Under the pieces are notes generated by a model. It was not told the origin of the DNA. It was given only the letters and a program-made list of their open reading frames with translations, and ran no database searches. A stretch of 64,000 bases of DNA. It comes from Escherichia coli (GTDB taxonomy: Bacteria > Pseudomonadota > Gammaproteobacteria > Enterobacterales > Enterobacteriaceae). A program made the translations under genes and the position numbers. Of the stretch, positions 54,038-55,466 are shown in pieces; positions within the stretch are counted from its first letter, which is position 1; every line of letters begins with the position of its first letter. The stretch is taken from NCBI RefSeq assembly GCF_009931435.1, contig NZ_CP043414.1, one strand, 5' to 3'.

Positions 54038-54511
54038 TTACGGATTCTCCTTATTCTTCCTTCTATCCATTCGCTTTAGCTTTAGCTTTAGCTTTTTGAG
54101 CTCTTGAAGTTTGCTCTTTGCATCAATATTACCGTTATTTACAGCGAATTCCATCCAATAAATAGCTTTATTCAAATTATAATATTCTGATAATATTGGA
54201 TTTGTATCCGATAAAAAAACTCCATAATTAAACTGCGCTGTAACATTCCCCTGAGATGCTGATCTTTCTAAGTATCGCAATTGTTTGTAAATGTTATTTT
54301 TAGTAAAGCAGTAATATTGATATAGTCGAAATGATGCCTCTGAATCACCATGTTGTGATTTATACTTCAGTTTCATCAACTTTTCTTCACTTAAATCATA
54401 GGTCATTGCTGTAGACCCCATCATACTTTCGTTTTGTTTTATTTTCACATCAGCACCATGCAATTGAAAAATAAAAGAGAAATAAAAAAATAGTAACAAG
54501 CATGCTTTCAT
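54038..54511 (-). CDS. yibG: Sel1/TPR-repeat protein with signal peptide (YibG)
   Basis: ORF track 157 aa MKACLLLFFYFSFIFQLHGADVKIKQNESMMGSTAMTYDLSEEKLMKLKYKSQHGDSEASFRLYQYY... Confidence 0.8.
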   Translation of the reverse strand: MKACLLLFFYFSFIFQLHGADVKIKQNESMMGSTAMTYDLSEEKLMKLKYKSQHGDSEASFRLYQYYCFTKNNIYKQLRYLERSASQGNVTAQFNYGVFLSDTNPILSEYYNLNKAIYWMEFAVNNGNIDAKSKLQELKKLKLKLKRMDRRKNKENP

Positions 54512-54683
54512 ACATCTACAACCTATCTTATATCACTGGGTTTTTCTGGCGTACCTTGCATATTAGAAATGGGGTGCCCAGATGGCCCATATGTTATCCA
54601 ATTACCAAGGTCTTTTGTTGTTATAGCCATAAGATCCTTATTTGAATTAAGGTTCGTTGGTGCTGTTAGCACTGTATCCATTT

Positions 54684-55466
54684 TTAACTTACCATTAGTT
54701 CCTCGCCCCACCACGTCCATAGCGTGTCAGGTCCTATTACATTTGTATGTAACTCTTTAGCTAATTGGCTAGCAAATGAATTTTGTCCTTTACCTGTATT
54801 ACAAGAAAATAACCAAACTGTCATCCCATCTTTATAATTCCCATCAAATTTAATTAGATATGCTAGATCTTTAGCTGTCATGATACTGCGCGTTGCGGAT
54901 TCAATAGATGTGGGGGTACCATGCCCCCCGATTGTGAAAACGCCTGGGATATTAATCTCATCAGCTACAGAATGGATAAGATCACTTTCGGGGTATAAAT
55001 TTATATCAACCAAACCTTGCGGATCTACATTTATGACCGGATCCAACGGATACTGATAAAAATTCCATCCCCCCTTCAGCCCAATTGGATCCTGAGTGAT
55101 ATACCGCCCCTGCAGCGGGTCATAATAGCGGTGGCGGTTGTAATACAGGCCGGACTCCTCATCATACTGCTGCCCCGGCAGCCGGATGAGCTGCTGCAGT
55201 TGATGCGGGTTCTCTTCATTCAGCAGGTTGCCCCATTCATCATATTCTGCGTACCACGCTGTTGCCCCTTCCGTGCTGACAAGCGCCAGGGGCAGACCGC
55301 GATGGTCGCAGTGGTACAGGTGAATTTTTCGCGCCGGCGTGTACACCGGGTCCATCTGGTTTTGCATCTGCGTCACCGTCAGGCCGCACGATGCCAGCCA
55401 GCGGCGGCTTTCCTCACTCACCCGGTCAGCCAGGATTTCACTTTCCAGCCGGTCGAGCATCTGCAC
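54684..55466 (-). other. yibJ: orphan Rhs fragment 2 (yibJ-like): about 456 bp of Rhs core 3' end plus a 108-aa C-terminal domain
   Basis: ORF track 260 aa from a GTG; residues 1-152 are homologous to the end of the full-length Rhs (…[58 protein letters not shown]), then a distinct tail [37 protein letters not shown]...; no promoter or canonical start evident. Confidence 0.7.

Follow-up and report, generated by a model that had tools for sequence, protein, structure and literature searches.

YibG as the probable periplasmic immunity partner of the yibJ-type Rhs toxin tail in an Escherichia coli rhs orphan array

The window analysed here, a stretch of 64,000 nucleotides from Escherichia coli (NZ_CP043414.1), contains an E. 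coli rhs orphan array that adjoins mtlA and yibF, and it raises the question of whether the small gene yibG, which follows a yibJ-like toxin tail in this array, encodes the cognate immunity protein of that tail and in which compartment such a toxin would act. Both yibG and yibJ (rhsJ) are uncharacterised E. coli K-12 y-genes, and a placement as toxin and immunity gene gives each of them a testable function. Our literature searches on yibG, yibJ, DUF8616, CPD-like Rhs proteins and Sel1 repeats combined with cysteine proteases found no experimental work, and none of the papers searched describes an experiment in which the tail or YibG was examined for binding, protection, export or proteolysis. 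The original prediction had been derived from the layout of the array, in which each other toxin tail was said to be followed directly by a small gene with a fitting localisation signal. This premise holds, as the Ntox34 tail is followed by YibA (HEAT repeats, no signal), the Tlde1 tail by Imm57 with a signal-like N-terminus (MARLLTIVLFFSISANA), and the main Rhs tail by a YbfB-like polytopic membrane protein. YibG as immunity protein of the next module was ruled out, since the Tlde1 tail found there has an Imm57 gene of its own. Taken together, the analysis makes it probable that the yibJ-type tail and yibG form an Rhs toxin/immunity cassette in which YibG is exported and blocks a clan-CD toxin in the periplasm.

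The coordinates of the relevant features are collected in Table 1. The Rhs core remnant of the yibJ-like orphan lacks the N-terminal PAAR or repeat region and, in translation, ends with a DPQGL demarcation motif; the equivalent stretch in a near-identical genome carries the PGAP label of a frameshifted Rhs core pseudogene with missing N-terminus. As in other Rhs cassettes, the variable C-terminal domain starts directly after a core ending in PxxxxDPxGL. The tail had been placed at 54687-55010, of which the start stands (55010 belongs to the first codon after the Rhs DPQGL) and the end does not, because a G5 run has lost 1 nt, and the apparent stop at 54687 is a false one produced by the ensuing -1 frameshift. 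The window reads GGGG where O157:H7 and a K-12-like strain read GGGGG (a C-run on the plus strand, 54706-54709), and strain 2020CK-00188, aligned with these G5 alleles, has G4 like the window. Intact alleles read through to a C-terminal ...PSDIR followed by the stop, and the real tail is therefore 162 aa long, running from 55010 to 54523. With its corrected stop codon 11 nt upstream of the yibG ATG, the tail is "followed directly" by yibG in a truer sense than the earlier coordinates implied. The 65-aa ORF at 54523-54720, considered as an immunity gene, a separate gene or intergenic DNA, was rejected in all three roles: it is the frameshifted C-terminal third of the toxin, contiguous and in frame with the latter in O157:H7, a B strain, Enterobacter and Salmonella. 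The toxin copy of the window is a silent orphan, devoid of an Rhs N-terminus and frameshifted in addition, which leaves the immunity gene as the sole intact half; the cassette would accordingly serve here, if at all, as protection against kin that fire the toxin and as a recombination reserve. A promoter and terminator scan of 53800-55600 returned 4 promoter-like sites against 5.4 expected. According to a genomic SELEX study of K-12, the yibA-yibJ and yibJ-yibG intervals contain sites of the RpoD holoenzyme (PMC3946193), which lends weak support to an independent expression of yibG.

Table 1. Features of the yibJ-type tail, yibG and the adjoining Rhs core remnant, in coordinates of the window.
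Feature	Position	Strand	Basis or remark
Rhs core remnant of the yibJ-like orphan	55011..55478	-	Pfam RHS PF03527, E 5.8e-17
yibJ-type C-terminal toxin domain, 162 aa if intact, clan-CD cysteine-peptidase fold	54523..55010	-	-1 frameshift here
Codon of tail His30 (GGHG motif), predicted catalytic histidine	54921..54923	-	Invariance, profile alignment
Codon of tail Cys70 (WLFSCNTG motif), predicted catalytic cysteine	54801..54803	-	Invariance, profile alignment
G4 homopolymer on the coding strand (G5 in intact alleles), -1 frameshift site	54706..54709	-	Allele alignment, three-frame translation
Toxin tail stop codon	54523-54525	-	
11-nt spacer, toxin stop codon to yibG start codon	54512..54522	-	Read from sequence
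yibG (157 aa), encoding a Sel1-like-repeat protein predicted to be exported and to confer immunity	54038..54511	-	
Sec signal peptide predicted for YibG (residues 1-19), MKACLLLFFYFSFIFQLHG/ADV	54455..54511	-	Hydrophobicity heuristic, AlphaFold2
Helical core of YibG with Sel1-like repeats, about residues 42-125	54137..54388	-	AlphaFold2, Foldseek
Tandem GCTTTA repeat, 3.8 copies, inside the yibG 3' end (KLKLKLK)	54073..54095	.	Tandem Repeats Finder

The repaired tail looks like a clan-CD (caspase/legumain/C80-like) domain of about 160 aa. Its AlphaFold2 model (pLDDT 93) shows the caspase-like alpha/beta fold that characterises this clan, and the domain would presumably act as a peptidase. Among 51 diverse tail relatives, only H30, G31 and C70 are invariant, and Cys70 is the sole cysteine of the tail domain. 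A profile built from these 51 sequences had a single match in the PDB, a legumain-type enzyme with an E value of 0.4, and it places the HG motif of the tail on the matching region of a legumain-type endopeptidase and Cys70 on the ...aCeSGs motif of the legumain-type AEP1; a profile of four sequences gave no match among PDB sequences. The clan-CD arrangement, in which a conserved His and, after it, a conserved Cys each terminate a hydrophobic strand, is thus recognisable in these alignments, with His30-Cys70 as predicted catalytic dyad. In Pfam and NCBIfam, the repaired tail belongs to no family and has DUF4347 as its sole match (13.2 bits where the cut-off is 24.6, E 0.074), and the Pfam gathering score of a clan CD family is not reached. 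The sub-threshold Pfam matches that recur in more than one member of the tail family all belong to clan CD (DUF4347 in six, Peptidase_C80 in four, C13 in three), the best scores being E 1.3e-4 for Peptidase_C80 and E 0.0015 for DUF4347, both judged to be sub-threshold. One RefSeq record labels the tail "DUF8616", a model that was absent from the Pfam copy used.

The Peptidase C80 domains of MARTX (3fzy) and TcdA/TcdB (3ho6), together with further clan CD members (legumain C13, gingipain C25, CHAT, and caspases), form the comparison group for the tail. C80 domains are internal self-processing modules that are activated by inositol hexakisphosphate in the eukaryotic cytosol. Unlike these, the yibJ-type domain sits at the end of its protein as the cargo of an antibacterial-type cassette and possesses its own C-terminal beta extension of about 60 residues. 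As self-processing and a eukaryotic cofactor are the norm for C80 domains, toxicity of the tail toward bacteria is not guaranteed. The structurally closest effectors, Tce1 (PA0256, DUF4347) and Tce2 of the P. aeruginosa H3-T6SS (PDB 9qpe), share only 12 % sequence identity with the yibJ tail. An anti-eukaryotic role was proposed for them, and no immunity protein is known for either (PMC13323088, PMC8262886). Moreover, the Tce proteins are Hcp-loaded, stand-alone effectors without an immunity gene, whereas the yibJ-type tail is encapsulated in an Rhs protein and comes with an obligatory neighbouring gene.

This neighbour, yibG, is an intact 157-aa ORF on the minus strand (54038-54511) and, in a genome whose yibG DNA is 100 % identical, bears the RefSeq annotation "yibG: sel1 repeat family protein". 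The original prediction had described its product as a protein with a signal peptide and Sel1/TPR repeats, and both attributes were recovered, the first by a heuristic and the second by structure modelling rather than by Pfam, where the scores stay below the cut-offs (TPR_27 21.6 bits against 27, Sel1 18.9 against 30.7). The AlphaFold2 model of YibG (pLDDT 83) consists of an isolated N-terminal helix, then a disordered linker (residues 15-31), and paired helices at residues 42-125 with pLDDT above 90. Six of the seven best Foldseek matches of this model in the PDB are Sel1-like-repeat proteins (probability 1.00, E values of only 0.009-0.2), so that YibG is predicted to adopt a Sel1-like-repeat (SLR) solenoid fold. 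At its N-terminus, MK is followed by some 17-18 uncharged hydrophobic residues and an LHG/ADV site; here and below, signal-like segments were called by our own heuristic, which considers hydrophobicity and the -3/-1 positions, and not by a trained predictor. The GCTTTA repeat corresponds, in a protein comparison, to 4 extra residues relative to the 153-aa YibG alleles of K-12 and O157. Between E. coli alleles, dN/dS amounts to 0.2-0.46, and yibG is therefore under purifying selection.

Sel1-like-repeat proteins are also found as immunity proteins elsewhere. PA5086, PA5087, and PA5088 are exported to the periplasm. Their structures (5jkp, 5jjo, 6lch) match the YibG model in Foldseek with TM scores of about 0.40-0.46 over 84-88 columns, a likeness at the level of the repeats only, with 20-24 % identity and E values above 0.1. 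They are about 260 aa long as compared to 153-157 aa for YibG, and their toxin is an unrelated phospholipase D. These Tli5-type proteins provide immunity against the phospholipase PldB/Tle5b, a T6SS effector (PMC7216683).

Whether the tail and yibG belong together was assessed across genomes. The evaluable loci, that is, those with readable downstream sequence, numbered 38 (11 obtained via protein look-ups and 27 metagenome loci) and span Escherichia, Enterobacter, Salmonella, a further proteobacterial chromosome, and metagenomes. A YibG-family gene lies downstream of the tail relative in every one of them (11/11 and 27/27). Its start is located between -22 and +101 nt from the toxin stop in all loci but one, where the distance is 304 nt, and the spacing is 10-20 nt in eight of the 11 tabulated pairs. 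In the metagenome loci, which combine a strong toxin match with room downstream, the YibG-family ORF was recognised with E values from 1e-13 to 1e-34. For example, the intact 1409-aa Rhs protein of O157:H7 ends in exactly the same tail and is followed by yibG after 11 nt, and Enterobacter Rhs proteins of 1395-1405 aa carry a tail of 79 % identity, again with a YibG homologue (61 % identical in local alignment) 11 nt downstream. Full-length, deliverable Rhs proteins with a tail of this type thus occur in O157:H7, in Enterobacter and, with distant tails, in vgrG/PAAR-linked form, the window copy being an orphan. In the Salmonella pairs, the toxin is about 47-49 % and the immunity protein 49-53 % identical to the E. 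coli counterparts, and further toxin/partner pairs extend down to 40 % and 28 % identity, respectively, two of which adjoin vgrG and PAAR genes. Relative to the E. coli pair, toxin identity correlates with partner identity (Spearman 0.77 for n = 10 points, which are not phylogenetically independent). Downstream of more distant, non-Rhs relatives of the domain, unrelated and non-exported small proteins are encoded.

Within E. coli, the pair is present in about two thirds of the complete genomes: of 5426 genomes, 3492 contain yibG and 3496 the tail, and the joint 2.1-kb tail-yibG block is covered to at least 80 % in 3445, counts that largely reflect the clonal inheritance of one block. The presence of yibG in genomes lacking the tail had been named as an observation that would speak against the pairing, and it does occur in some Salmonella; there, however, a toxin remnant (DPIGL...KPGDIK followed by the stop) still abuts yibG, which corresponds to an orphan-immunity pattern and not to independence. 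At an IS-disrupted locus, yibG was likewise kept and the toxin lost. The comparative evidence strongly supports YibG as the putative partner of the yibJ tail, and the originally positional assignment as cognate immunity protein is supported by the co-occurrence and adjacency across genomes.

The pairing as such is ordinary and has already been proposed in silico for EHEC O157:H7 (PMC7216683). Vazquez-Lopez and Navarro-Garcia described z5018 of strain EDL933 in 2020 as a TPR/Sel1-like-repeat protein encoded directly downstream of rhsA, named it "RhsAI" as a putative immunity protein, and noted a structural similarity of the RhsA tail to the C. difficile toxin A entry 3HO6 (PMC7216683). In another O157:H7 genome, the gene at the z5018 position is yibG and the tail is identical to the repaired tail of the window. 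By position, RhsA/RhsAI (z5018) of EDL933 and the tail/yibG pair hence appear to be the same genes.

In the full-length Rhs proteins of O157:H7 and Enterobacter, the tail would be freed behind the DPxGL autocleavage site and delivered into neighbouring cells, presumably through a type VI secretion system (T6SS). YibG, made with a Sec signal peptide, would be exported, and its Sel1-like-repeat solenoid may bind and block the incoming toxin in the periplasm; if so, the toxin would most likely have a protein or peptide of the envelope or periplasm as its substrate. A Sec or lipoprotein signal at the N-terminus, the hallmark of an exported immunity protein, was recognised by the heuristic in 25 of the 27 distinct partners. 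The segments comprise 12-19 uncharged residues that follow K/R and precede small residues, and a lipobox is present in three partners (VTGC, LSGC, and ISGC). Periplasmic action is therefore the best inference, in agreement with what had been predicted for the yibJ toxin. A partner without any signal segment is encoded on a 6.67-Mb complete chromosome (CP063166), which we take to be betaproteobacterial, and the compartment of action may hence differ between clades.

This one signal-less toxin/Sel1-like pair is also a starting point for a different, unlikely reading, namely that YibG is the cognate immunity protein of a toxin acting in the cytoplasm, with the N-terminus as an anchor or irrelevant and with neutralisation taking place before export or at the inner membrane face. 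The pairing of the more distant domain relatives with signal-less small proteins would fit, as would Cpe1, an interbacterial cysteine-protease toxin with cytoplasmic targets (cited in PMC13323088). Such a toxin is difficult to reconcile with the signal-like segments of nearly all partners and with the lipoboxes, which imply export. Moreover, even an uncleaved anchor with such charges would, according to the positive-inside rule, put the repeat domain of YibG into the periplasm.

Slighter still is the chance that YibG belongs to the cassette as a conserved accessory and not as an inhibitor, for example, as a co-effector that is secreted or as a factor in the periplasm that the toxin needs in order to mature or to enter. 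Its retention after toxin loss in Salmonella and at the IS-disrupted locus is what would be expected of an immunity gene rather than of a helper, and yibG is intact and under purifying selection while the adjoining toxin decays in K-12 and in the window. Sel1-like repeats are indeed generic protein-protein adaptors, and a T6SS-associated Sel1 protein of Klebsiella was reported to be toxic on over-expression (PMC12469244), but a Sec-exported protein cannot chaperone cytoplasmic T6SS cargo. Finally, the adjacency could be incidental, with yibG as an unrelated periplasmic Sel1 protein hitch-hiking in the E. coli rhs island and the true immunity gene either missing or represented by the 65-aa ORF. 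The raw ORF map does place this ORF between yibG and the apparent stop of the toxin, and the co-occurrence within E. coli could be clonal. This reading is effectively refuted on comparative grounds, since that ORF is toxin sequence and since the adjacency persists at all 38 evaluable loci, with toxin identities as low as 40 % and in genomic contexts that are unrelated.

The combination of a caspase/legumain-fold toxin with a nearly always exported antidote points to a proteolytic target in the bacterial envelope. As the pair occupies the firing position of the main Rhs protein in O157:H7, it could shape the competition between E. coli lineages, with strains that carry yibG alone as protected bystanders.

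More tentatively, and as a proposal that falls somewhat short of an even call, the tail may represent in E. coli a large, unnamed Rhs/T6SS family of clan-CD proteases with envelope or periplasmic targets and small exported Sel1-like-repeat antidotes. If so, functions would be assigned to the K-12 genes yibJ and yibG, and a protease class would be added to the periplasm-acting interbacterial effectors, which are mostly cell-wall hydrolases, lipases, and pore-formers. A profile search returned 729 tail relatives (cluster representatives at 50 % identity), in which the domain occurs either as terminal tail or in 3-6 internal copies in proteins of 2,069-7,376 aa; the C-terminal beta extension of the tail is missing from this wider family. 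The Tox-Caspase passages of Zhang et al. (2012) regard caspase-like domains at the extreme C-terminus as predicted toxins and internal copies as releasing peptidases (PMC3482391), and both architectures are present in the yibJ-tail family. These passages mention no immunity family, and T6SS/Rhs is not among the delivery routes named in them (PMC3482391). A scan of genome contigs with highly specific patterns from four tail sequences yielded only one 463-bp contig, labelled Terrisporobacter and with a 100 % match, which is probably a contaminant.

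Comparative evidence strongly supports YibG as the partner of yibJ-type toxin tails across genera and metagenomes, a role that the original prediction had assigned to it as an immunity protein by position. In O157:H7, exactly the tail of the window ends an intact 1409-aa Rhs protein, with yibG 11 nt downstream. Full-length Enterobacter Rhs proteins (1395-1405 aa) carry a 79 % identical tail, followed after 11 nt by a YibG homologue (61 % identity, local alignment), while 13 nt beyond Salmonella tails of 47-49 % identity lie proteins 49-53 % identical to mature YibG. A homologue also occurs 304 nt downstream of an IS-truncated tail copy, and each of four more distant tails (40-54 % identity), two of them carried by Rhs proteins that are encoded next to vgrG and PAAR genes, precedes a YibG-family ORF, one of which was uncalled in the source annotation. 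Scanning metagenomes with a family motif furthermore returned 36 loci, 28 with a strong toxin match, of which 27 had room downstream. All 27 had a YibG-family ORF whose start fell between −22 and +96 nt relative to the toxin stop; compared with an HMM of the first 11 partners, these ORFs scored E values of 1e-13 to 1e-34. Viewed from the toxin, the co-occurrence proposed as a check of the pairing was thus observed.

Viewed from YibG, whose homologues in a protein search were mostly from Escherichia/Shigella, Salmonella, and Enterobacter, yibG without the tail, which had been considered to speak against the pairing, was found in part. A common Salmonella allele (605 member sequences) follows yibA with no toxin gene, and at one locus an IS element takes the place of the toxin next to yibG. 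In the widespread Salmonella yibA-yibG loci, a 200-nt gap still encodes DPIGL...KPGDIK*, in which the two ends of a deleted tail are fused, and this remnant stub (L007:4880-4990) adjoins yibG. The stub marks a clean internal toxin deletion that left an orphan immunity gene, and yibG without toxin represents an orphan-immunity pattern rather than evidence of independence.

Of 5426 complete E. coli genomes, 3492 contain yibG and 3496 the tail, and the joint block reaches a coverage of at least 80 % in 3445; as these numbers largely reflect clonality, they weigh less than the cross-genus evidence. Alleles of yibG differ at 3-18 of 462 sites (dS up to 0.11), and their dN/dS of 0.2-0.46 indicates that the gene is maintained by selection. 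Tail DNA shows 0-1 differences in 489 nt between K-12-like, O157:H7, and B strains (loci L002, L023, L060) and is at least 99 % identical to the window in 3486 of the 3496 genomes; yibG in the same genomes falls into identity bands of 90-95 %, 95-99 %, and at least 99 %. Diversity changes sharply across the 11-nt spacer (54523-55010 versus 54038-54511); as one possibility, the tail may have spread recently or undergone gene conversion.

The window lies in the mtlA/yibH to yibF interval of the E. coli chromosome and harbors an array of rhs modules. Its 2.1 kb around the tail and yibG are 99.0 % identical to the near-identical strain 2020CK-00188, and each of the two taken alone matches at 100 %.

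Features of the rhs array
Feature	Position	Strand	Remark
Full-length Rhs	58178-62371	minus	rhs array member
YbfB-like membrane protein	57852-58178	minus	after full-length Rhs
Orphan with Ntox34 tail	56371-57579	minus	rhs array member
YibA, HEAT-repeat	55508-56365	minus	after Ntox34 orphan
yibJ-like orphan	54684-55466 as ORF	minus	rhs array member
yibG	54038-54511	minus	157-aa ORF
Short Rhs-core remnant, then Tlde1 tail	53410-53856 (Tlde1 tail)	minus	next module after yibG
Imm57	52884-53405	minus	after Tlde1 tail

The tail had been placed at 54687-55010. Its start at 55010, directly after the DPQGL motif ending the Rhs core, holds; its end does not. The stop at 54684-54686 results from a one-G deletion in a run at plus-strand 54706-54709, which is G4 in the window and 2020CK-00188 and G5 in O157:H7 and a K-12-like strain. 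Intact alleles read through to ...PSDIR*, which gives the real tail a length of 162 aa and an end at 54523, with 11 nt separating it from the yibG ATG; because the frameshift had made the tail coordinates wrong, the observation is only partly confirmed. A 65-aa ORF at 54523-54720 was rejected as a gene of its own, being the shifted C-terminus of the tail. The K-12-like copy is broken in another way, by a nonsense codon (FAS*LAKE), and the B-strain orphan tail is intact. Since the toxin copy in the window is both orphan and frameshifted, its cassette is immunity-only.

YibG fits its earlier description, with a predicted signal peptide and Sel1-like repeats. Its N-terminus consists of MK, 18 uncharged residues, and an LHG|ADV site (a heuristic signal call). 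Pfam Sel1 and TPR matches are both sub-threshold; in the AlphaFold2 model (pLDDT 83), a disordered linker joins an isolated N-terminal helix to a core of helical repeats. Among the seven top-ranking Foldseek matches of the model in the PDB, six were Sel1-like-repeat proteins. A GCTTTA tandem repeat within yibG (3.8 copies, 54073-54095) makes the protein four residues (KLKL) longer than the common 153-aa allele and is likely a slippage-prone length polymorphism of the C-terminal helix.

A short hydrophobic N-terminal segment is present in 25 of 27 distinct partner sequences, three of the 25 ending in a lipobox. Given an exported antidote, the toxin would meet its target outside the cytoplasm, and extracytoplasmic action is thus likely in the enterobacterial clade. 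One of the two exceptions, a Salmonella partner, has a signal segment that is out of frame with the rest because of an A9 run. At the Salmonella locus L017:3744-3860, a frameshift in an A9 run cuts the YibG-family gene into a signal-like segment (MMYNYKKTQAVILFSLYIFFCQAC...) and the repeat body; it could stem from phase variation, from decay, or from an error in sequencing. The other exception, from the 6.67-Mb chromosome CP063166, lacks any such segment and is alone in clearly breaking the exported-partner rule; here, a VgrG-DUF2169-PAAR-Rhs protein with a distant tail precedes a signal-less Sel1-like protein of 114-116 aa (L021:7611-7955, L022:6873-7223). More distant non-Rhs relatives, several without the His, are followed by unrelated small signal-less proteins, and the pairing and export rule therefore pertains to the Rhs-linked clade, not the whole superfamily. 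Within a non-Rhs clade (L052-L058, e. g., L052:578-925 and 922-1230), several copies have the GHG histidine replaced (MRGS) and the downstream neighbor is an unrelated signal-less 102-aa ORF (MRPICNIREFSKNEEHP...), while L054 combines an intact dyad with a zinc-ribbon-like neighbor; the clade may represent another kind of toxin/antidote pairing, or its copies may be degenerate.

A four-tail profile search recovered 729 relatives among 1.84 billion representatives, most of them Rhs-type proteins whose final 110-130 residues form the domain; the yibJ subgroup has an additional C-terminal extension of about 60 residues. Some relatives (2,069-7,376 aa) contain three to six internal copies; the giants P0106-P0110, P0114, P0118, P0136, and P0147 (3,140-7,376 aa, three to six His/Cys-domain copies) match the "array of caspase-like repeats" architecture of Zhang et al. 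2012 (PMC3482391), where terminal caspase-like domains of polymorphic toxins are predicted as toxins. Only His30, Gly31, and Cys70 are invariant in 51 diverse members, sub-threshold Pfam matches found in more than one member were to clan-CD families only, and the HG...C motifs of the profile align with a legumain-type enzyme. Sequence and modeling demonstrate a clan-CD-like fold with a predicted His30-Cys70 dyad; that the tail acts by proteolysis, and on which substrate, we infer. What merits pursuit is the envelope target implied for this clan-CD protease toxin. One RefSeq annotation (NZ_CP104326.1, hit H76) labels the tail "DUF8616 domain-containing protein", and a curated model may therefore exist in a release newer than the Pfam copy searched.

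The assignment has a precedent in print: Vazquez-Lopez and Navarro-Garcia (PMC7216683) had already hypothesized it. They showed the main rhsA of EDL933 to be fused to z5017 and gave the downstream z5018, a TPR/Sel1-like-repeat protein, the name "RhsAI"; position and description fit the yibJ-type tail and yibG confirmed here in another O157:H7 genome. The tail was there matched structurally to TcdA entry 3HO6 and interpreted as inhibiting GTPases; 3HO6 is the autoprocessing cysteine-protease region. The nearest characterized effectors, Tce1 and Tce2 (PMC13323088), are stand-alone, probably anti-eukaryotic, and without immunity gene (PMC8262886). PA5086-5088, Sel1-like-repeat immunity proteins for phospholipase PldB, resemble YibG at the repeat level only. 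The pair is an uncharacterized example of a known system type.

Elsewhere in the window, the Tlde1 and Imm57 ORFs are both intact, the latter with a signal-like N-terminus; by contrast, the annotations of K-12-like, O157:H7, and B strains, and despite its near identity also that of 2020CK-00188, give Imm57 as frameshifted, and the former three have no annotated Tlde1 gene. ORFs with two-fold repeated peptide strings (…PDKAF(A/T)PHPAR…STWR…) at 48100-48440, between mtlD and mtlA, reflect tandem repeated DNA, assumed to be REP-type extragenic repeats unrelated to yibJ/yibG.
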